DNA of 35,188 nt from Patescibacteria group bacterium (GTDB lineage Bacteria; Patescibacteriota; Minisyncoccia; Phycocordibacterales; JACOZG01). The position numbers and the translations under genes were made by a program. Every line of letters begins with the position of its first letter. Within the stretch, counting starts at the first letter, position 1. The notes beneath the pieces are model-generated. The model made no database searches. It saw only the letters and a program-made list of their open reading frames with translations, and was not told the DNA's origin. Shown one piece after another: positions 48-8,948 of the stretch. The DNA lies in assembly GCA_038064055.1 (NCBI GenBank), contig JBBTTW010000035.1, forward strand, positions 1 to 35,188, given 5' to 3'.

Positions 48-1256
48 TTACACCATCTCCTGCTCCGCGATTTCAATTAGGCGTTCGTATTTGGCACGGC
101 GTTCGGGTGGGTTCGGGGAGCCCGCCTTGATGCCATCTGCCCCCACACCGACCGCGAGGTCGGCAATGAAGGCGTCGGGGGTGTCGCCCGAGCGGTGGGA
201 GATGATCACCCCCCACCCCGCCGCTTGCGCGAGTTTGACCGCCTCATAAGTCTCCGTCATCGTGCCGATTTGATTTGGTTTGATAATCACAGCATTGGCG
301 CCGCGGTGCTCAATCATCTTTTTAATCTCCGCCGGATTCGTGGTGGTGAGATCGTCGCCCACGATATCAATCCCCTGCCCCAACTTCACCACGATCTCCT
401 CGAAGCTCGCGAGATCATCTTCGGCGAAGGGGTCCTCAATGGAGGTGAGAGGAAATTTTTTGACCAGTTTTTCATAATGAGCGAGAAGTTCGCGAGGTTT
501 CAGATCTTGCCCCAAGACGCGGTAATGCCCGCGTTCTAAGAATTCCGACGCCGCGGCGTCGATGGCAAATTTGATTTCCGGACTTTCTCTTTTTGTTACC
601 TCGACGAGGAGTTCAAACGGCGCTTCGAGACTACCTAACTTCGGCGAGTAGCCACCTTCGTCGCCGAGGGACACTTCGCCATATCTCGCTTTAATTATTT
701 CGCCCAGCTGATCGAATATTTTATGAGCTTGATCGTAATTCGCCCGCGGCGACTGCCCGTCCAAGATGATCATGTACTCTTGGAAAGGCAGGAGGAAGTC
801 GGCATGCACGCCACCATTGATGATATTTAAATACCACTTAGGCAACTTCGGTCGCCACCCGCCACTCTCGGCAATCGATTGCCAGAGGGGCTTACCCGCG
901 AGCTTGGCCGTGAGACTGGCCACGGCCATCGAGATGCCGATCAGATTATTGCCGCCGAGGCGGCGCTTCTCCGGTGTGCCATCGAGCTCGAGTAAGGTTT
1001 GATCAATTTTAGTCTGGTCAACTTCAAGCCCGATTAAGGCTGGCTTAATTACTTCGTGGGCCAGCTTGATCGCCTGCTTCACCCCCACGCCGTCGGCGTC
1101 GCGGAGTTCCACCGCTTCGCGCCGGCCGGTGCTCTTGCCCGATGGCACGGCCACCCTTGTGGCCACTTCGCCACTCGAGAGCGCCACCGCAAGCGTTGGC
1201 CGGCCGCGCGAGTCGAGCGTCTCTTCAACCTTAAGATCAGTAATCGTTTTAGGCAT
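48..1256 (-). CDS. eno: Enolase
   Basis: 402 aa; DSRGRPT, PSGKSTG, GDEGG, DAAASEF, EDPF, VGDD, KPNQIG, SHRSG motifs. Confidence 0.98.
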   Translation of the reverse strand: MPKTITDLKVEETLDSRGRPTLAVALSSGEVATRVAVPSGKSTGRREAVELRDADGVGVKQAIKLAHEVIKPALIGLEVDQTKIDQTLLELDGTPEKRRLGGNNLIGISMAVASLTAKLAGKPLWQSIAESGGWRPKLPKWYLNIINGGVHADFLLPFQEYMIILDGQSPRANYDQAHKIFDQLGEIIKARYGEVSLGDEGGYSPKLGSLEAPFELLVEVTKRESPEIKFAIDAAASEFLERGHYRVLGQDLKPRELLAHYEKLVKKFPLTSIEDPFAEDDLASFEEIVVKLGQGIDIVGDDLTTTNPAEIKKMIEHRGANAVIIKPNQIGTMTETYEAVKLAQAAGWGVIISHRSGDTPDAFIADLAVGVGADGIKAGSPNPPERRAKYERLIEIAEQEMV

Positions 1257-3678
1257 TAGGTGTAGTGGCGGGAAGTGTCGCCTCTTCAGACGAGATCTCG
1301 CCGATCATCTTGATCACCGAGTCGGCGTTGAGCGAGATCGACTCGATCCCCTCGCGGACGAGGAAGCGGAGGAAGTCGGGGTAGTCGGAGGGCGCCTGGC
1401 CGCAGATGCCGATGTACTTACCGCGTCGGCGGCAAATCTTAATCACCTCGGAAATTAATTTCTTCACTGCCGGATCATTCTCATTGCCGATACCGCTCAA
1501 GACGCCAGCATCGCGATCGAGGCCAAGCGTGAGTTGCGTTAAGTCGTTCGAACCGATGGAGAAGCCGTCGAAGAGGTCGAGGAATTCTTCCGCGAGGAGC
1601 ACATTCGATGGGATCTCGCACATCATGTAGACCGGCGTCTTCGCCGCGTCGCTTCGCAAACCTTCGCGAGTGAGAATCTCAAGCACTTGTCGCGCTTCGC
1701 CCAGCGTCCGGCAGAAGGGCACCATCGGGATCACATTGTCGAGACCCATCTCGGCGCGCACCTGCTTCACCGCTCGGCATTCGAGGGCGAACGCCTCGCG
1801 GAACTTCGGGTCGTAGTAGCGCGAAGCGCCACGCCAACCGATCATCGGATTCTCCTCCGCCGGCTCGTAAGCCTCGCCGCCCAAGAGGGTGCGGTACTCA
1901 TTCGTCTTAAAGTCGGAGAAGCGGACGATAATCGGCCGCGGGTGGAATGCGGCGGCAATCTTGCCGATGCCATAGGCGAGCTTGTCCACATAGAAAGCAA
2001 GTGGATCTTCCCAACCGAGCATCCTTTTATCAATCTTTTCGCGTAGATCTTTTTCGAGAGTAGCGTAATTCAAGAGCGCAAGCGGGTGGAGTCCGATCTC
2101 GGACGCGATGATGAATTCTTCGCGCGCGAGGCCGACGCCGGCGACGGGTAGGAAGGACTTCTCGAAGGCGATGTCGGGGGTGGCAATGTTGACCATCACC
2201 TTCGTCTTCACCTGCGGCACGGCCTTCATGTCGTGCTCCACCACGCTAAACTTGAGCGCGCCGGAGTAGATGTAACCCGAGCTCCCCGTCGTATCGATCG
2301 TTACCAGGTCGCCGGTCTTAATTCGCTTCGTCGCCTTCTCCGTCCCCACCACGGCGGGGATGCCAAGCTCGCGCGAGACGATGGCGGCGTGACTCGTCCG
2401 CCCGCCCTTATCCGTCACGATGCCGGCGGCAATCTTCATAATCGGTTCCCAATCGGGATCCGTCATATCGGTGACCAAGATCTCACCAGCTTGGAAACGG
2501 CCGATGTGCTTGGCATCAAGGATCACTCGCGCCTTACCCGTCGCTACCGCCGTCCCAACCGACACGCCGGAGACGAGCGCCTTACCCGTTTCCTCGAGCC
2601 TATACTCTTTCAACTTAGAGAAGTCCTTGGCCGCCTGGATCGTCTCCGGCCGCGCTTGGACGATGAAGAGTTCCCCCGTCTTCCCATCCTTCGCCCATTC
2701 GAGATCCATTGGCGTCCACTTGCCGTGCTTGGCCGTGTAATGATTCTCAATGATCACCCCCCAGCGCGCGAGTGTTAGCACCTCCTCATTATTTAAAACA
2801 AAGGTGGTCTTCTCCTTACCCTTGGTGGCGATAATCTTAACCGGCCGGATCCCCTTCCGACCGAAAGAGTAGACCATCTTCCGCGCCTTGACCCCCAGAC
2901 GCTTGTCGATAATCGGCACGAAGTTCTGATTGAGCTTCGGTTTGTAAACAAAGAATTCATCCGGACTCACTTCGCCCTGCACGATCATCTCGCCCAACCC
3001 CCACGAGCCGTTGATGATAAGCAAATCTTTAAAACCCGATTCGGTATCGACGGTAAACATGACTCCCGACGCCCCGAGGTCGGAGCGCACCATATGCTGG
3101 ATGGTGACGGAGAGCGCCACCTTCATATGATCGAAGCCCTTATCGACGCGGTAAGAGATGGCGCGATCGGTGAAGAGTGAGGCCATGGCCGAGCGCACGG
3201 CGCGAGTGACGTCAGGAGCGCCGCGAATACCGAGGTAAGTATCGTGCTCACCGGCGAAGCTCGCGCCGGGCAAGTCTTCCGCCGTCGCACTCGAGCGCAC
3301 CGCCACATCCACGTCCTTGCCGTAACGCTCCTCCATCTTGGCATAGCGCTCATTAATCGCGGCCAGAAGATCGGGTGGAAACTCGGCCGCCAAGATCTCG
3401 CGCCGCACCGCTTTGCCGATCTTCGCCAGTTGGCGGAGATCCTTGGTATCAAGCGGGGTGAGGAGCTCGAGAATCTTCTTGTCGAGCCCAGTCGCGGCGA
3501 GGAAGTGAGTGTAGGCCGTGGCGGTGACAACGAAGCCACTCGGCACCTTGACCCCCTGACCCCCGAGCTCGCGGATCATCTCGCCGAGCGAAGCATTCTT
3601 GCCGCCGACCAGAGCCACGTCATCGATCCCTACCTCTTCGAGCCAAAGTACGAGCGCCTGCTTTTTATCTTCTGTCAT
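1249..3678 (-). CDS. ppsA: Phosphoenolpyruvate synthase (pyruvate,water dikinase)
   Basis: 809 aa; VGGKNASLGEM, VAVRSSATAEDLPGASFAG, QARPET, GGRTSHAAIVSRELG (phospho-His), EENPMIGWRG, IGSNDLTQ, GICGQAPSD. Confidence 0.97.
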   Translation of the reverse strand: MTEDKKQALVLWLEEVGIDDVALVGGKNASLGEMIRELGGQGVKVPSGFVVTATAYTHFLAATGLDKKILELLTPLDTKDLRQLAKIGKAVRREILAAEFPPDLLAAINERYAKMEERYGKDVDVAVRSSATAEDLPGASFAGEHDTYLGIRGAPDVTRAVRSAMASLFTDRAISYRVDKGFDHMKVALSVTIQHMVRSDLGASGVMFTVDTESGFKDLLIINGSWGLGEMIVQGEVSPDEFFVYKPKLNQNFVPIIDKRLGVKARKMVYSFGRKGIRPVKIIATKGKEKTTFVLNNEEVLTLARWGVIIENHYTAKHGKWTPMDLEWAKDGKTGELFIVQARPETIQAAKDFSKLKEYRLEETGKALVSGVSVGTAVATGKARVILDAKHIGRFQAGEILVTDMTDPDWEPIMKIAAGIVTDKGGRTSHAAIVSRELGIPAVVGTEKATKRIKTGDLVTIDTTGSSGYIYSGALKFSVVEHDMKAVPQVKTKVMVNIATPDIAFEKSFLPVAGVGLAREEFIIASEIGLHPLALLNYATLEKDLREKIDKRMLGWEDPLAFYVDKLAYGIGKIAAAFHPRPIIVRFSDFKTNEYRTLLGGEAYEPAEENPMIGWRGASRYYDPKFREAFALECRAVKQVRAEMGLDNVIPMVPFCRTLGEARQVLEILTREGLRSDAAKTPVYMMCEIPSNVLLAEEFLDLFDGFSIGSNDLTQLTLGLDRDAGVLSGIGNENDPAVKKLISEVIKICRRRGKYIGICGQAPSDYPDFLRFLVREGIESISLNADSVIKMIGEISSEEATLPATTPNA

Positions 3679-3680
3679 AA

Positions 3681-5021
3681 TTATTTAAACTTAACCGCGA
3701 TTAATAAATCCGATACATTACTTCCGGTTTGACCCGTCACCAATTGCCCCTCTCCCATCGCCTCGAAGAAGCCGATCGAATCATGGCGCGCGAGATAGGT
3801 CTCGGGCGCGAGATCCTTCGCCTCGGCCAGTTGCCGAAGCGGCACGTCGACGATCGCGCCGGCGTAGTCGCTGTTGTCGCGCCCGTCGGAGGCGAGTGCG
3901 AGCACCACTTCTCCCTCGCCAAGCGCGGTGAGGGCCGAGAGTCCAAGTTCGTGATTGCGCCCACCCCCACGCCTTGGACGGGAGACACCCCGAGAGAGCA
4001 CGCCGGTCTCATTGGTGGCGAACTTAACGGTCGTCTCGCCGCCGTAGAGGTGGACGCTTTTTGGCGGCGCCGAGCGGAGCGAGGCGACTACCTCCGCCCC
4101 CACCAAACTCGCTTCGCCAGTAAGTTGCTTATTTTTTATCTCCGGAGTCAATCCAGCCTCTTGTGACGCCTTGGCCATCGCCTCAAGAGCCAAGCCGTTT
4201 GAGACGATCAGCACATTCCTGACTCGGTCGAAGTATTGAGCTTCTTTCGGCGTCTCGATGAGCCCGCAATGCTCGAGACCACAAGTGCGGAGGATGCCAT
4301 ACTTCTCAAGCACGAGATCGGCGTCGGCCACGGTGGTGTCATCACGGTAAGTGGGCCCCGAAGCCACGAAGGTGAGGTCATCACCGGGTACGTCGGAGAA
4401 GATGAGCCCCACCACCTGCGCCGGGTAAGCCGCTTTAGCCAAGTGCCCGCCGCGCGCGAGCGACATGTGCTTGCGCACTACATTCAAATCTTGGATCGTC
4501 GCTCCCGCTTCGAAGAGCGCCGTCACGATCAGCTTCTCCTCAAGGCAGGTGCCATCATTCTCCGGCAAGCAGAGCAGAGTCGAGCCGCCACCCGAGACGA
4601 TGGCGATCACTAGGTCGTCAATCGTTAAATTTTGGAGAAGCTTCATTAACTTACCGGTGATGGCGATGTTCTCATCCGAGGGGAAGGGGTGAGTGCCGGC
4701 GAAGCATTCGATCTTCTTAAGGGTGCAGGTGTTTGATTTCGTTACATCGATCACGAGCCCGCCGGTGAGATGCTCGCCCAAGATCACCTCGAGTTCTTCG
4801 GCGGCGGCAATGGCGCACTTACCCACGCCGACGACGAAGACGTGCGGCGGGAGCTTGATGCCTGCCACTTCACCGGCCAATTCCAACACTCCGTCTTTAA
4901 TCTTAACTCGCTCGCGCACCGCCAGACGAGTGTCGATGGCCGCGAGTCCGACTTCAGCCAAATCGAGGACGAAACGACGTTCGGCGCTGGTGGCCAGCGC
5001 CTCAAGATTCTTAATCTTCAT
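3681..5021 (-). CDS. Glycerate 2-kinase, MOFRL/DUF4147 family
   Basis: 446 aa; GVGKCA, HPFPS, SGGGSTLL, LNVVRKHMS, SDVPGDD, ASGPT, GGETTV, GGRN, SDGRD, TGQTGSNVSD. Confidence 0.92.
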   Translation of the reverse strand: MKIKNLEALATSAERRFVLDLAEVGLAAIDTRLAVRERVKIKDGVLELAGEVAGIKLPPHVFVVGVGKCAIAAAEELEVILGEHLTGGLVIDVTKSNTCTLKKIECFAGTHPFPSDENIAITGKLMKLLQNLTIDDLVIAIVSGGGSTLLCLPENDGTCLEEKLIVTALFEAGATIQDLNVVRKHMSLARGGHLAKAAYPAQVVGLIFSDVPGDDLTFVASGPTYRDDTTVADADLVLEKYGILRTCGLEHCGLIETPKEAQYFDRVRNVLIVSNGLALEAMAKASQEAGLTPEIKNKQLTGEASLVGAEVVASLRSAPPKSVHLYGGETTVKFATNETGVLSRGVSRPRRGGGRNHELGLSALTALGEGEVVLALASDGRDNSDYAGAIVDVPLRQLAEAKDLAPETYLARHDSIGFFEAMGEGQLVTGQTGSNVSDLLIAVKFK

Positions 5022-5039: not shown

Positions 5040-6173
5040 TTAGGCGTCTCGACCAATGGCCTCGGCCAGATGATTCAAACCGTCCCGTCTTAACAATTTG
5101 ATCAAACCGAGGCTGATTTCCCCTGGTAGTTGCGGCCCTTCATAGATTAGGCCGGTTATAAGCTGGACGAGAGTGGCGCCGAGCCTGATCTTCGTATAAG
5201 CGTCGGCGGCGGAGAAGATGCCACCGCAACCGATGATGACGAGCCGCTCGCCGAACTCGCGGTAAGTCAGCCGGATGAGTTCGTTCGAGCGCGCCGCCGT
5301 CGGCCGGCCGCTGAAGTGCCCCTTACCCGCGCGGGCGACTTCCGCCGGTTGCAAGCTTGGGTCTTGACGATTACTCTGCAGATTACCGAAGATTACGCCG
5401 GCCACGGAGAAGGTACTCACCACTCGAAGCATCGCCCGCGTTTCCTCGTCCGACCGCGTGATCGGCATTTTGATAAAGAGCGGCCGATGCAACCTTAAGC
5501 CGGTGACGGCCGCGAGCAACTCCCGCAAGTGCTCCGGCTCGTAGAACTCAATATTCCCCTTCAGGTTGGGGCAACTGATGTTCAATTCATAATAAGCAAA
5601 GTTGGGTTGAGTAGCCGCTTCGGCTTGGCGGAAAGCGGCGACGACGTCGGCCACCGCCTCGGCCTGATTCTTGATCTCGAGAGTGTTCGTCTTGCCCAAG
5701 CTCAAGCCAACCGGTGAGGCAAAGTGGCGCGCCGCGAATCGGTTCAAAATTATTTTAATTCCCTCGTTCTTGAAACCCTTATTCACGAGCAGTGAGCGTG
5801 ATTGGACGAGGCGCCCGAGTCGCGGTGGCGCATTACCCTCGTAAGCCTTATTGGTAATCGTGCCCACAGTGCCGAAGCCGAAGCCAAGCGAAGGTAAGAT
5901 TTGGGTCAGCCGGCCTTCGTAATCGAAGCCGGCGGCCAAGCCGACCGGCGTGCGAAAGTCGATCCCCGCCACCGTCTGGCGTAAAAGCGGTGACTCCACC
6001 CGCCAAAGGCGGTCGAGGAAGGAGCGCGCGGCGGAGTAACGCCCGAACCACTCCCCCGCGCGGGTAAGCGCGTGGTGAATGACTTCCGAGTCAAACAAGA
6101 AGAAGATGGGCCGCGCCAGATAGCGGTAACCGAAAGAACTAACTCCTAGTGCCAGCAGTTTGAATCGCGGCAT
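5040..6173 (-). CDS. pyrD: Class 2 (quinone-type) dihydroorotate dehydrogenase-like flavoprotein with atypical active-site motifs
   Basis: 377 aa; N-terminal amphipathic extension (ARPIFFLFDSEVIHH), PVGLAAGFD, GTIT, GNAPPRL, NISCPN, IIGCGGI, GATLVQLITGLIYEGP. Confidence 0.85.
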   Translation of the reverse strand: MPRFKLLALGVSSFGYRYLARPIFFLFDSEVIHHALTRAGEWFGRYSAARSFLDRLWRVESPLLRQTVAGIDFRTPVGLAAGFDYEGRLTQILPSLGFGFGTVGTITNKAYEGNAPPRLGRLVQSRSLLVNKGFKNEGIKIILNRFAARHFASPVGLSLGKTNTLEIKNQAEAVADVVAAFRQAEAATQPNFAYYELNISCPNLKGNIEFYEPEHLRELLAAVTGLRLHRPLFIKMPITRSDEETRAMLRVVSTFSVAGVIFGNLQSNRQDPSLQPAEVARAGKGHFSGRPTAARSNELIRLTYREFGERLVIIGCGGIFSAADAYTKIRLGATLVQLITGLIYEGPQLPGEISLGLIKLLRRDGLNHLAEAIGRDA

Positions 6174-6606
6174 AAGATTTGACCCGAGCTAAAACGATTG
6201 AACCAAGAATGAAGAGTGAGATCGAGATGATGGCTGAAAACATGCAGTAGATGCAAATACTTTTGAGCACGAAGAGCTGGAGCGAGACGAGGTAGAGCGA
6301 CATGAGGAAGCCGATGAGAGTGAGCTTGGCGGCGCGGATAAAGAGCGAGAGTCGCGCCGCGAGCAAGTGGTCGAAGGTGATGATGAGAATGAGGAGGTAG
6401 TAAACGGCGCCGAAGAGCGAGAGCGGGATGCTGAAGAGATTATTGTACTCACTCGTCAGCACGGCTTCGCAACCGGAAGTAAGCGAGCAAGGTGGGACGA
6501 CGTTGCGGTAATGCTCGATGGTAAGGTAAGTCGCGTCTAAGAAGCCAAGAAAGCCAAGGATGAGGATGGCGATCGCCAACGGCTTAATTGCTTTAGTTAG
6601 TGGCAT
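6139..6606 (-). CDS. Vitamin K epoxide reductase (VKOR) family membrane protein
   Basis: Loop cysteines CSLTSGC, VLTSEY, CIYC redox motif, several TM helices; ATG at 6606 preferred to the TTG at 6615. Confidence 0.93.
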   Translation of the reverse strand: MPLTKAIKPLAIAILILGFLGFLDATYLTIEHYRNVVPPCSLTSGCEAVLTSEYNNLFSIPLSLFGAVYYLLILIITFDHLLAARLSLFIRAAKLTLIGFLMSLYLVSLQLFVLKSICIYCMFSAIISISLFILGSIVLARVKSYAAIQTAGTRS

Positions 6607-7396
6607 GGCTTGCAATACTATCGGCGATCAACTTTTTAAACTCGTCGTAATCGCCCGGCATCTTGGTAATCTTCTGCCCGTTTAAGAAGAAGGTGGGGGT
6701 GCTGTTGACGAGGAGTTTGAAGCCCTCATCCCGATTAGATTCGACACGGTCGGCGATGGCGCTTGAGTCGAAGTCGGTGGCAAACTTACTCTCATCAAGA
6801 CCGAGGGTTTTGGCATAACCGGCGAAGATCTTGTTGGCACCACTCTTCCCTTCCCAACTCTCTTGATTATCAAAAAGGAAATCGGCCATCTCCCAGAACT
6901 TACCTTGGCGACCGGCCGCTTCCGCCGCCGCGGCGGCGGCCGTAGCATTGCGATGTTGAGAGAGCGGGAAGTGGCGATAGACGAAGGCGAAGTCGGCGCC
7001 GAGGTCGTCGACGAGTCGCTTCACCACTGGCGCGTAAGCGGCGCAGGCGGGGCACTCGAAGTCACTGTACTCAACGAGCACCGTGACGGCCTCGCGATTG
7101 CCGCGCACCCAATCATCGGCTCGCGGCTTGGTTAGGTCAAAACCGGAGGTGGTGCTGGTGGCCGTGCCGGAGTCGCCCGAGTCGGAGTTGGAAACGAGAA
7201 CGGACAAGCCCCAGACACTAAGACCAATGACGATGATGACGATAAGCCAAGGGAGGAACTTGCGCTTCAAGCGGCCAGTTTGACCGGCCGACTGCCGTGC
7301 CAGTTTGGCTAGTCGTCGGCGTTCGCGCTTGCTTTGGGGATCATTATTACCCCCCACCCCTTGAGCCACAGCGTTTTGATCGTTATTGTTTTCCAT
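6593..7396 (-). CDS. Membrane-anchored DsbA-family thiol:disulfide oxidoreductase
   Basis: 267 aa; basic N-terminus then one TM helix; EYSDFECPAC, YRHFPL, QGKFWEM, STPTFFLNG. Confidence 0.94.
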   Translation of the reverse strand: MENNNDQNAVAQGVGGNNDPQSKRERRRLAKLARQSAGQTGRLKRKFLPWLIVIIVIGLSVWGLSVLVSNSDSGDSGTATSTTSGFDLTKPRADDWVRGNREAVTVLVEYSDFECPACAAYAPVVKRLVDDLGADFAFVYRHFPLSQHRNATAAAAAAEAAGRQGKFWEMADFLFDNQESWEGKSGANKIFAGYAKTLGLDESKFATDFDSSAIADRVESNRDEGFKLLVNSTPTFFLNGQKITKMPGDYDEFKKLIADSIASHATN

Positions 7397-7401
7397 CTCC
7401 T

Positions 7402-7430
7402 ATTCTAAAATATCCCTCTCCGCTTGTCGA
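7402..7430 (-). promoter_or_regulatory. Sigma70-type promoter for dsbA-VKOR-pyrD
   Basis: TCGACA-17 nt-TAGAAT, 5 nt (AGGAG) before ATG. Confidence 0.6.
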
Positions 7431-7894: not shown

Positions 7895-8173
7895 ATGGAA
7901 ACAGTTAAATTTAAGATGACTTTTAAAAATTCGTGGTGGCAATGTTTAGTGGCAATTTTTTTATTCAAACCCATTGGAATGATTACTACCATCGTAATCA
8001 TATCAGCTTTTAGTGGCGTTGGACTTACGGGAGAAATAGGCCAGGATATAGAGGATATCTCCAACATAATAGCTATCATTTTAGTTCTGTGGCTTGCTCG
8101 TTATTTATCTAAAAAGACATGGGAAAGAAAACAGAAAAAGCTAGCTGCCTTAAGTAATACTCAGAATAATTAA
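7895..8173 (+). CDS. Hypothetical membrane protein
   Basis: 92 aa, AT-rich, hydrophobic segments and basic C-tail; TGcTAAACT at 7819-7827 upstream. Confidence 0.65.
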   Translation: METVKFKMTFKNSWWQCLVAIFLFKPIGMITTIVIISAFSGVGLTGEIGQDIEDISNIIAIILVLWLARYLSKKTWERKQKKLAALSNTQNN

Positions 8174-8225: not shown

Positions 8226-8948
8226 TTAATCTTCTTGAAAAATCTTGTCCCATACTTGAAATATCGATGCTAATATAATTACCCAGCCGAATAAAAATAA
8301 AAACGCGTTTTTAACATAAATTAACGATTGCCATTTATACCCCTCCTCTCTTTCCATCTTGAATTGAATCTCGGATTTTGAATAAGGTTTTACACTTATT
8401 TTCGTTGTGCCATTTTCCGTTTCTATTTTAGCTTTACCGAAAGGAAGAACGCCTCGTAATTCTATATCATTTCCTAATTCTGCTATAGAACTCTCAGTGC
8501 CAAAGTATTCACATTTTTTGGAATTAAAAGGAACATATATCTCTGAGGATGTTCCTTTATAAAACAAGTTCACTGAAATCGCGCCACCCTCTTCGCCATC
8601 TAAAAAACCTTCAAGATCATATATTCTTTGATCGTCAAAATATGCTTCGCTATTATTGTGTATACACACATATCCAGGCATCGGTTCAGTTTTTATGTTT
8701 AAAAACCTATAAAGCAACGTCGCCCCTAATGCATCAACATTAGTGGTGATGCTAATTTTTTTGGTCCCCAGTGATTTACTCTGCTCTAGCTTAGCTGGAA
8801 TTTTTTTTGAATTCCATGGTGGTGGAGCACCCGGAGAAGCTAGGATAAGCGGTGGTAAAAAAAGAAACAAAACTAGTAGTGCTTTTTTGTGTCTATTTAG
8901 ATAAAATTTTATATTTGAAATTTTAGTTCTTATACTCTGTGAGCTCAT
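8226..8948 (-). CDS. Hypothetical protein with N-terminal TM/signal and C-terminal TM, likely extracytoplasmic domain
   Basis: 240-aa ORF in AT-rich DNA; ALLVLFLFLPPLILA and AFLFLFGWVIILASIF; two Cys. Confidence 0.75.
   Translation of the reverse strand: MSSQSIRTKISNIKFYLNRHKKALLVLFLFLPPLILASPGAPPPWNSKKIPAKLEQSKSLGTKKISITTNVDALGATLLYRFLNIKTEPMPGYVCIHNNSEAYFDDQRIYDLEGFLDGEEGGAISVNLFYKGTSSEIYVPFNSKKCEYFGTESSIAELGNDIELRGVLPFGKAKIETENGTTKISVKPYSKSEIQFKMEREEGYKWQSLIYVKNAFLFLFGWVIILASIFQVWDKIFQED

Follow-up and report, generated by a model that had tools for sequence, protein, structure and literature searches.

We examined three overlapping genes on the minus strand of contig JBBTTW010000035.1, from the Patescibacteria group bacterium assembly GCA_038064055.1. 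The window, by which we mean the whole stretch of DNA that was analysed, is 35,188 nucleotides (nt) long, and coordinates refer to it unless a contig or locus is named. The genes encode a DsbA-like protein, a VKOR and a flavin mononucleotide (FMN) enzyme that resembles dihydroorotate dehydrogenase (DHODH) and that we call DHODH-like throughout. In order of transcription, the features are:

7402..7430, minus strand: promoter-like site TCGACA-17-TAGAAT, 10 of 12 consensus matches, just upstream of dsbA
6593..7396, minus strand: DsbA-like thiol:disulfide oxidoreductase, 267 aa (Pfam Thioredoxin_4 1.9e-24, DSBA 7.7e-14)
6139..6615, minus strand: VKOR, 158 aa, starting at a TTG at 6615 or an ATG at 6606 (Pfam VKOR 2e-25)
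5040..6173, minus strand: DHODH-like FMN enzyme, 377 aa (DHO_dh PF01180 3.2e-51, residues 64-361)

An earlier note on this DNA had read these genes as dsbA (with CPAC), VKOR (with C-x5-C and CIYC) and a class 2 DHODH-like gene, overlapping by 14 and 35 nt and sharing one promoter. Open reading frames, Pfam matches and motifs all agree with these genes and overlaps. The dsbA/VKOR overlap is 14 nt with the ATG start and 23 nt with the TTG start, and the VKOR/DHODH-like overlap is 35 nt. For the promoter, a promoter-like site does lie upstream of dsbA (7430..7402), but such sites are not commoner in the region than in shuffled sequence (3 against 2.2 +/- 1.5), and we regard this one as a consensus match only.

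The DsbA-like protein has a hydrophobic segment or membrane anchor near the N terminus (about residues 43-71), the active site FECPAC and an STP motif of the cis-Pro type. Judged by its sequence it would be a regular member of the Thioredoxin_4/DSBA group, with thioredoxin fold, CxxC, cis-Pro-type motif and membrane anchor all in place. The motif F[EQ]CPAC also occurs in the DsbA-like proteins that adjoin DHODH-like genes at two other loci (L050 and L044). The VKOR has a cysteine pair in a loop (C43/C49, the C-x5-C motif), a second pair in CIYC (C121/C124) and a four-helix core. An alignment of 19 VKORs, 15 of them domains of fusion proteins, shows no variation at C43, C49, S55, C121 or C124. 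These residues, the Pfam match (2e-25) and the four long helices in a model of a fused relative place it in the VKOR family (PF07884).

The genome of the window (G000; 652 kb in 53 contigs, rated 100% complete by marker genes with 0.04% contamination) also encodes a second, stand-alone VKOR of 138 aa on contig C20 (L002:505-921, minus strand). This gene lies about 320 nt downstream of a gene for a phosphoribosyltransferase resembling orotate phosphoribosyltransferase (OPRT; L002:1243-1920, minus strand; TIGR01367 at 60 bits, cut-off 150), and murD adjoins. An OPRT-like gene beside a VKOR is odd in a genome without pyrF.

We considered a frameshift or assembly artefact as the cause of the split between VKOR and DHODH-like and rejected it, since contigs from two samples show the same junction. 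Contig X3, from a second sample of the same study, reproduces it without insertions or deletions (record 15, 5385-6533, 0 differences, 0 gaps), and contig X1 (5000-6941), from what may be the source run, likewise carries the junction without indels. X3 and X1 represent two groundwater samples of one study, at a depth of only about 4-7. Because the junction was reproduced in the second sample, the split is not a one-off assembly error.

The DHODH-like protein has the frame of a class 2 enzyme. It passes the NCBIfam models for quinone-dependent DHODH (NF003652 at 284.4 bits, cut-off 267; TIGR01036 at 227.6 bits, cut-off 200), which match it over its full length from residue 16, and its best PDB matches are all class 2 DHODHs (top match 8ofw, 1.2e-49). 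The class 2 architecture of N-terminal quinone/membrane helices and a TIM barrel is kept, and Y16, F25 and H33 of the N-terminal domain are invariant in 36 relatives, H33 being the quinone-domain histidine.

The substrate pocket has been remodelled. We take the E. coli PyrD numbering and residue roles as commonly given, having checked the motif contexts; S175 is presumably the catalytic base, and K66, N111 and T247 presumably line the orotate site. The window protein has Y85, V130, C201 and L265 at these places (K66Y, N111V, S175C and T247L in E. coli terms) and reads NISCPN where class 2 enzymes have NxSSPN. K66, N111 and T247 are invariant in 15 canonical class 2 sequences, whereas the window protein has Y, V and L. 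Cysteine replaces the catalytic serine in the window protein and in all of the 45 narrow-clade and 33 sister-clade sequences (clades described below). Set against the same 15 canonical sequences, the changed positions are K66Y (in the narrow clade only), Q92Y/C, N111V, N116K, N139S, K144N, S175C, L181G, L184F, T247L and G265N, and those kept, on the FMN side, are N172, N177, K217, N246, S267-G268 and G296-G297. Among 36 narrow-clade sequences, Y85, V130-N131-K132-G133-F134, N198-I199-S200-C201-P202-N203, K235 and N264 are invariant and L265 is nearly so (at least 90%).

To place the protein among its relatives we used a phylum sample of 301 genomes in which DHODH (PF01180), VKOR, DsbB, pyrB and pyrF were counted. 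Classification of DHODH-like proteins covered the 60 places with a PF01180 match scoring 130 bits or more in an open frame of 351 aa or longer. The 60 were aligned with E. coli PyrD and the columns K66, N111, N172, S175, N177, N246 and T247 were read off, giving a seven-letter signature of the residues in that order. Fifteen of these places and the window carry YVNCNNL and form what we call the narrow clade (16 genomes). Another 29 form the sister clade, with KVNCNNL (KINCNNL and KVNCNNI in one genome each), and the remaining 16 are canonical class 2 enzymes (KNNSNNT, like E. coli), KNNCNN variants or class-1-like. A second sample came from a pattern scan of species genomes, which gave 45 loci. 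In a midpoint-rooted FastTree tree of 124 distinct sequences, the narrow clade is one group nested inside the sister clade, and the two clades lie next to the KNNCNN forms and the canonical class 2 enzymes and far from the class-1-like sequences. The unpublished genome G154 contributes to nothing but the tallies and a single class-1-like row of the tree. Homologues with about 60% identity carry the names Patescibacteria, Yanofskybacteria and Roizmanbacteria.

Six narrow-clade loci (L106-L108, L114, L116 and L119, five of them VKOR fusions) are labelled uncultured Gammaproteobacteria or Pseudomonadales. These labels look unreliable because the tree groups the sequences with genes of Patescibacteria.

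There are other DHODH fusions in the phylum, which are accompanied by pyrimidine genes (L088-L091). Three are class-1-like DHODHs in long frames of 583-616 aa with the signature YNNCNNT, next to pyrF (G008:C4, G036:C24 and G085:C26, at L088-L090). The fourth is a class-1-like DHODH in a 1229-aa frame with an OMPdecase match (G103:C2, L091).

Going by sequence conservation, the DHODH-like protein is a conserved and selected flavoenzyme with a class 2 quinone domain and a rebuilt substrate pocket. With the class 2 PyrDs (E. coli 1F76, M. tuberculosis 8OFW and human DHODH) it shares the PF01180 barrel, the N-terminal two-helix domain and the residues on the FMN side. It differs from them in having cysteine for serine, in its changes at K66, N111 and T247 as well as at Q92, N116, N139 and K144, in standing in a genome without a pyrimidine pathway and in being linked, or in relatives fused, to VKOR or DsbB. 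The class 1A DHODHs (Lactococcus lactis DHODA and Trypanosoma cruzi DHOD) have the cysteine base in common with it, in NxSCPN, and offer a model for action as a reductase. However, they are soluble, have no N-terminal quinone domain and keep the active-site lysine, whereas the window protein has that domain and branches in a class-2-like clade. The class 2 part of the earlier description thus stands as far as the quinone-dependent models and the N-terminal domain go, and fails at the catalytic serine and the three replaced substrate-site residues. We would therefore not file the window protein as a DHODH, the label "class 2 PyrD" would need qualifying, and the database name quinone-dependent dihydroorotate dehydrogenase is probably misleading. 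What the protein appears to be is a non-pyrimidine enzyme from a clade that is spread across the Patescibacteria and descends from class 2 DHODH.

The earlier note had suggested looking for conserved linkage to VKOR and for VKOR-PyrD fusions, and both exist. VKOR is over its cut-off in 93 of the 301 genomes and DsbB in 65. In six (G064, G170, G052, G025, G123 and G107), VKOR and DHODH-like form one open frame; these genomes belong to six different families, one (G123) in the window's class, and all six fusions are of the narrow clade. The second scan gave 30 narrow-clade loci, 10 of them VKOR fusions, together with four sister-clade loci, one having a divergent adjacent VKOR, and 11 canonical alphaproteobacterial enzymes with no linkage. 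Proteins with both PF07884 and PF01180 also make up four of the 120 best database hits, one of them named a Roizmanbacteria quinone-dependent DHODH. The split genes of the window (158 + 377 aa, with 12 codons shared) match the length of most fusions (511-547 aa), and the break between them falls in the fusion linker.

The partner need not be VKOR. DsbB is a non-homologous analogue of VKOR, and in G181, a genome without VKOR, the first 20 nt of a narrow-clade DHODH-like gene are shared with a DsbB gene (PF02600 2e-12, both cysteine pairs present). G179 has the genes DHODH-like, DsbB and DsbA-like in that order, with overlaps of 4 and 19 nt. At two more places (G031 and L128) VKOR adjoins a DHODH-like gene and is transcribed divergently from it, with a DsbA-like gene between the two in G031. 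A weak, word-based search with the G181 DsbB, capped at 8000 candidates, gave 64 matches from 468 candidates among longer proteins and no DsbB-DHODH fusion among these 64. Counting both kinds of quinone-dependent DsbA oxidase, linkage was found at 8 of 16 narrow-clade and 2 of 29 sister-clade loci of the 301-genome sample, so it is recurrent but not universal. Fused and unfused forms interleave in the tree, where the nearest neighbours of the window are the unfused L111 and L099 and the fused L104, and fusion or fission must therefore have happened more than once.

A different kind of fusion turned up beside these. Many DsbB proteins of about 280-320 aa among database proteins P0127-P0188 carry a C-terminal cytochrome c domain (PF02600 with PF00034 or PF13442). 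Those with names come from Caldilineaceae, Ardenticatenaceae and Promineifilaceae, and in them a DsbA oxidase is fused to a possible electron outlet.

For the arrangement at the membrane we used an AlphaFold2 model of the natural fusion L104 (520 aa, alignment of 19 sequences), the nearest fused relative. The model is confident (mean predicted local distance difference test, pLDDT, 90.5; predicted template-modelling score, pTM, 0.87). It has four long helices (13-36, 68-89, 92-119 and 125-144), which are directly followed by the DHODH N-terminal helices (146-168 and 173-188), with no fifth membrane helix between the VKOR and DHODH-like parts. Superposed on full-length M. tuberculosis DHODH (8OFW), its barrel and N-terminal domain give a template-modelling (TM) score of 0.94 and a root-mean-square deviation of 1.7 Å. 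A complex prediction for the separate VKOR and DHODH-like proteins of the window, with separate alignments, scored 0.00, a result that speaks neither for nor against a contact between them. The known topology of bacterial VKOR is the basis for placing the cysteine pairs outward. In such a model the VKOR cysteine pairs would be outside and the flavoenzyme at the cytoplasmic surface of the membrane; it would lie on the quinone side and not the thiol side, because it comes after helix 4 without a fifth helix. This placement would allow the quinone tunnel of the DHODH-like part to reach the quinone of VKOR.

The note had seen no other pyr gene in the window, and this extends to the whole genome, where nothing is over cut-off for pyrB, pyrC, pyrE or pyrF. 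A whole-genome search of G000 gave 0 matches for pyrB and pyrC. Nothing in G000 was over the cut-off for pyrF, its weak OMPdecase match being ribulose-phosphate 3-epimerase, and no true pyrE was found there, only a phosphoribosyltransferase at 31.9 and 60 bits, below the cut-offs. The absence of a respiratory chain, which the note had assumed for this group in general, also held up, since we found neither a terminal oxidase nor a quinone prenyltransferase in G000. Specifically, the searches of this genome found no UbiA/MenA prenyltransferase, cytochrome bd, heme-copper oxidase or complex I (antiporter subunits). They found no succinate dehydrogenase/fumarate reductase flavoprotein either, and the one clear FAD_binding_2 match is an aminoacetone-oxidase-family protein. 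AOX/PTOX gave no match in G000, but the control genomes gave none either. Thioredoxin reductase is present. For G000, then, we have an orphan DHODH-like gene in a cell without an obvious respiratory chain.

Across the phylum sample, the clade enzymes occur together with DsbA oxidases as follows:

Narrow clade, 16 genomes: VKOR or DsbB in 15; neither pyrB nor pyrF in 13
Sister clade, 29 genomes: VKOR or DsbB in 26; neither pyrB nor pyrF in 13
Both clades, 45 genomes: VKOR or DsbB in 41; neither pyrB nor pyrF in 26
Other genomes, 256: VKOR or DsbB in 106; pyrB and pyrF not counted

Fisher's test of 41 of 45 against 106 of 256 gives 1.9e-10. The narrow-clade exceptions in pyr content are G107, G241 and G270. 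In the sister clade, pyrB and pyrF occur together in eight genomes, each of which has at least two DHODH-family matches over cut-off; in seven of them the further match is short, of class-1-like length, and the second match of G031 has an internal stop. Heme-copper oxidase occurs in 10 of the 301 genomes, all 10 with VKOR or DsbB, and is distributed as 0 of 45 clade genomes and 10 of 256 others. This pattern is compatible with alternative outlets, with numbers too small to weigh.

Fusion, displacement by an analogous enzyme and co-occurrence are three independent kinds of evidence for coupling, and on these comparisons we consider it very likely that the DHODH-like flavoenzyme is functionally coupled to VKOR or DsbB. 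Which way the electrons flow is a harder question. Our best explanation, to which we give a probability of about 0.5, is that the DHODH-like enzyme re-oxidises the quinol made by VKOR or DsbB and uses FMN to hand the electrons on to an acceptor in the cytoplasm that is not orotate. The membrane topology, the sharing of quinone, the direction of flow and the identity of the acceptor are all inferred.

Under this explanation the three genes would make up one oxidative-folding module. DsbA, anchored outside the membrane, would oxidise exported proteins, and VKOR would re-oxidise DsbA and hand the electrons to a membrane quinone, which would have to be scavenged because no UbiA/MenA prenyltransferase was found in G000. 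The DHODH-like enzyme would sit on the cytoplasmic face beside VKOR (in many relatives as the C-terminal half of the same polypeptide) and exchange electrons with the same quinone. Quinol would be re-oxidised through FMN, with the electrons going to an acceptor for which a fumarate-like enoate and O2 are only candidates, and a cell that has no respiratory chain would thereby gain an electron outlet for protein folding. Fumarate is reduced at the same site in class 1A DHODHs, which use a cysteine as the acid, and an enoate acceptor would therefore be chemically plausible. We favour an oxidiser of quinol because VKOR and DsbB reduce quinone and no other quinol oxidiser was found in G000, and because a second quinone reducer fused to VKOR would keep the quinone reduced. 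Orotate itself is an unlikely acceptor, since the residues on the orotate side are replaced, the step would be uphill and there is no dihydroorotase to pull the reaction. The broader proposal of a self-contained, respiration-free folding machine, with the flavoenzyme as a new kind of quinol:acceptor oxidoreductase, evolved from class 2 DHODH through changes in the orotate pocket, and as terminal outlet in a large part of the Patescibacteria, we put forward only tentatively.

Several points weigh against our best explanation. All class 2 DHODHs known to us reduce quinone and do not oxidise quinol, and replacing the lysine on the flavin side by tyrosine would, if anything, lower the flavin potential and disfavour transfer from quinol to FMN. 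Fumarate as the acceptor is not supported because no fumarate-forming gene of the Lyase_1 family was found in G000. That genome also encodes a flavoprotein resembling NDH-2 and SQR (425 aa, C19:37297-38265; L094:1237-2514, minus strand; TIGR03169 at 127.7 bits, cut-off 310), and such an NDH-2/type III sulfide:quinone reductase-like protein could be a further quinone-linked enzyme in a cell without terminal oxidases. At 8 of 16 narrow-clade and 27 of 29 sister-clade loci no VKOR or DsbB stands beside the DHODH-like gene, and 106 of the 147 genomes with VKOR or DsbB do not have the clade enzyme. The P value of the Fisher test overstates the association because the genomes are related, and the co-occurrence tallies were built from lists transcribed by hand.

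The strongest rival, which we think possible but doubtful, is flow in the forward direction, in which a cytoplasmic donor (dihydroorotate or another dihydro compound) would give electrons through the DHODH-like enzyme to the shared quinone. VKOR or DsbB might then use the quinol to send reducing power outward, in a reductive or isomerase route, or the two might simply be quinone reductases located together on a limited supply of scavenged quinone, with O2 or abiotic reactions re-oxidising it. All class 2 DHODHs characterised so far work from substrate to quinone, the best PDB and NCBIfam matches are all quinone-dependent DHODHs, and the quinone-domain residue H33 and the FMN residues are kept. 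Transfer from a low-potential donor to a thioredoxin-fold protein would, by the usual potentials, be downhill. A precedent for transfer from quinol to disulfide has been proposed for ArcB (PMC5882134). On the other side, the partner here is a DsbA-type protein with CPAC, from a family of oxidants, and a source of dihydroorotate is missing along with pyrB and pyrC. Two quinone reducers without an oxidiser would moreover leave the quinone pool reduced and VKOR idle. We also know of no VKOR or DsbB that acts reductively.

It is improbable that the enzyme is a true DHODH that uses dihydroorotate from a host for biosynthesis or salvage, and that VKOR is a neighbour only through a shared need for quinone. 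Such an enzyme would be expected to pass the NCBIfam equivalog cut-offs, as this one does, and it would fit the names given in databases and the OPRT-like phosphoribosyltransferase in G000 (TIGR01367 at 60 bits, below the cut-off of 150). However, no orotidine monophosphate (OMP) decarboxylase was found there, so that orotate could not become uridine monophosphate, and the pocket changes are invariant across the clade. In addition, 13 of the 16 narrow-clade genomes are without both pyrB and pyrF, and seven of the eight sister-clade genomes with both genes also gave the short class-1-like DHODH match.

Still less probable is the earlier note's suggestion in its narrowest reading, that an ordinary PyrD runs backwards and converts quinol and orotate to quinone and dihydroorotate. 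The orphan status of the gene and its linkage to VKOR would suit this, and the class 1B DHODH of orotate fermenters does reverse with NADH. The residues that stand for K66, N111 and T247 are Y, V and L, though, the serine base is cysteine, and there is no dihydroorotase and no known supply of orotate. The energetics are also unfavourable. The orotate/dihydroorotate couple lies at about -250 mV, a value that we did not find in print. Menaquinone is given as -74 mV and ubiquinone as +113 mV (PMC5882134), far above that couple, so that passing electrons from quinol to orotate would be strongly uphill and reverse orotate reduction is unlikely.

A chance neighbourhood, with the fusions as annotation or assembly artefacts, is hardly credible: CPR genomes are gene-dense and most clade members do not stand beside VKOR, but fusions recur in six sampled families and many public records of different studies, two genomes have the non-homologous DsbB in place of VKOR, the window junction was reproduced in a second sample and the fusion is predicted to fold as one confident unit (pTM 0.87).

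The module can be compared with several known systems. In the Synechococcus VKOR-thioredoxin fusion and in actinobacterial VKOR with DsbA/MdbA, VKOR likewise has both cysteine pairs and a DsbA-type partner alongside, and VKOR is already known to occur fused to redox partners. Here, however, the partner is a flavoenzyme predicted to be cytoplasmic, placed after helix 4 with no fifth helix. With the E. coli DsbA-DsbB-quinone pathway the module shares the logic that quinol from DsbA re-oxidation needs a downstream oxidiser, and DsbB-linked versions of the DHODH-like enzyme exist. Quinol from E. coli DsbB is drained by terminal oxidases in air and by menaquinone and fumarate reductase without it, whereas here no oxidase or fumarate reductase was found in G000 and the part of drain would fall to a monotopic FMN enzyme from the same operon or polypeptide. 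If the DHODH-like enzyme does drain quinol, the module would work like the flavin sulfhydryl oxidases Ero1 and Erv/ALR of eukaryotes and viruses, in which a disulfide relay leads to a flavin that gives the electrons to a final acceptor, with no respiratory chain involved. They are not homologous and hold flavin adenine dinucleotide (FAD) in a helical bundle beside a CxxC; in the module, a quinone would link the CxxC to FMN in a TIM barrel on the other side of the membrane.

Our literature search found no paper on VKOR or DsbB coupled to DHODH in bacteria, nor on the remodelled clade. Each part on its own comes from a known family (DsbA-like, VKOR or the DHODH fold). New are the unfused, overlapping form with its DsbA, translationally coupled, the DsbB-linked variants, the narrow- and sister-clade signatures and the phylum-wide counts. 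Patescibacteria make up a large share of bacterial diversity, and in our sample 147 of 301 genomes have VKOR or DsbB while 10 of 301 have heme-copper oxidase. For the question of where electrons from disulfide formation go in bacteria that do not respire, the DHODH-like flavoenzyme is a concrete and testable candidate. If it drains quinol, it would represent a new enzyme activity on the DHODH fold, explain orphan "PyrD" annotations in hundreds of genomes and provide a compact module for respiration-free disulfide formation. If it feeds the quinone instead, this would point to a donor-driven route across the membrane, of a kind not known so far.

Downstream of the three genes lies one more feature, which we include for context only:

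3681..5021, minus strand: glycerate-2-kinase-like gene (DUF4147 + MOFRL; Pfam, with the NCBIfam match below cut-off)

The earlier note had given this next gene a promoter of its own. The gene starts 18 nt past the stop of the DHODH-like gene, and we found no promoter-like or terminator-like site on the minus strand of that gap; it is possibly co-transcribed with the other three. The genes further downstream are equally tight, with a 2-nt gap before phosphoenolpyruvate (PEP) synthase and an 8-nt overlap with enolase.

Lower-glycolysis genes stand beside the DHODH-like gene at about five loci. In the window (48-5021, minus strand) these are the glycerate-kinase-like gene, PEP synthase and enolase, and the same families flank the DHODH-like gene at L112. 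At L074 PEP synthase is near it, and at L043 pyruvate kinase, D-2-hydroxyacid dehydrogenase and enolase are beside it. In one database protein (P0001, 805 aa), a narrow-clade DHODH-like domain is fused to a glycerate-kinase-like domain. Among the loci examined we found no conserved neighbour, general to all, that could name the substrate of the DHODH-like enzyme. The glycolysis neighbours may hint at a cytoplasmic substrate, or may reflect chance in small genomes.

Directly upstream of the operon, between 7500 and 9000, the G+C content of the window drops to 0.36-0.47 from about 0.55-0.60 elsewhere. This stretch encodes a PGPGW-like membrane protein of 75 aa and a 240-aa open reading frame (8226-8948, minus strand) without a Pfam match, and it may be foreign DNA.

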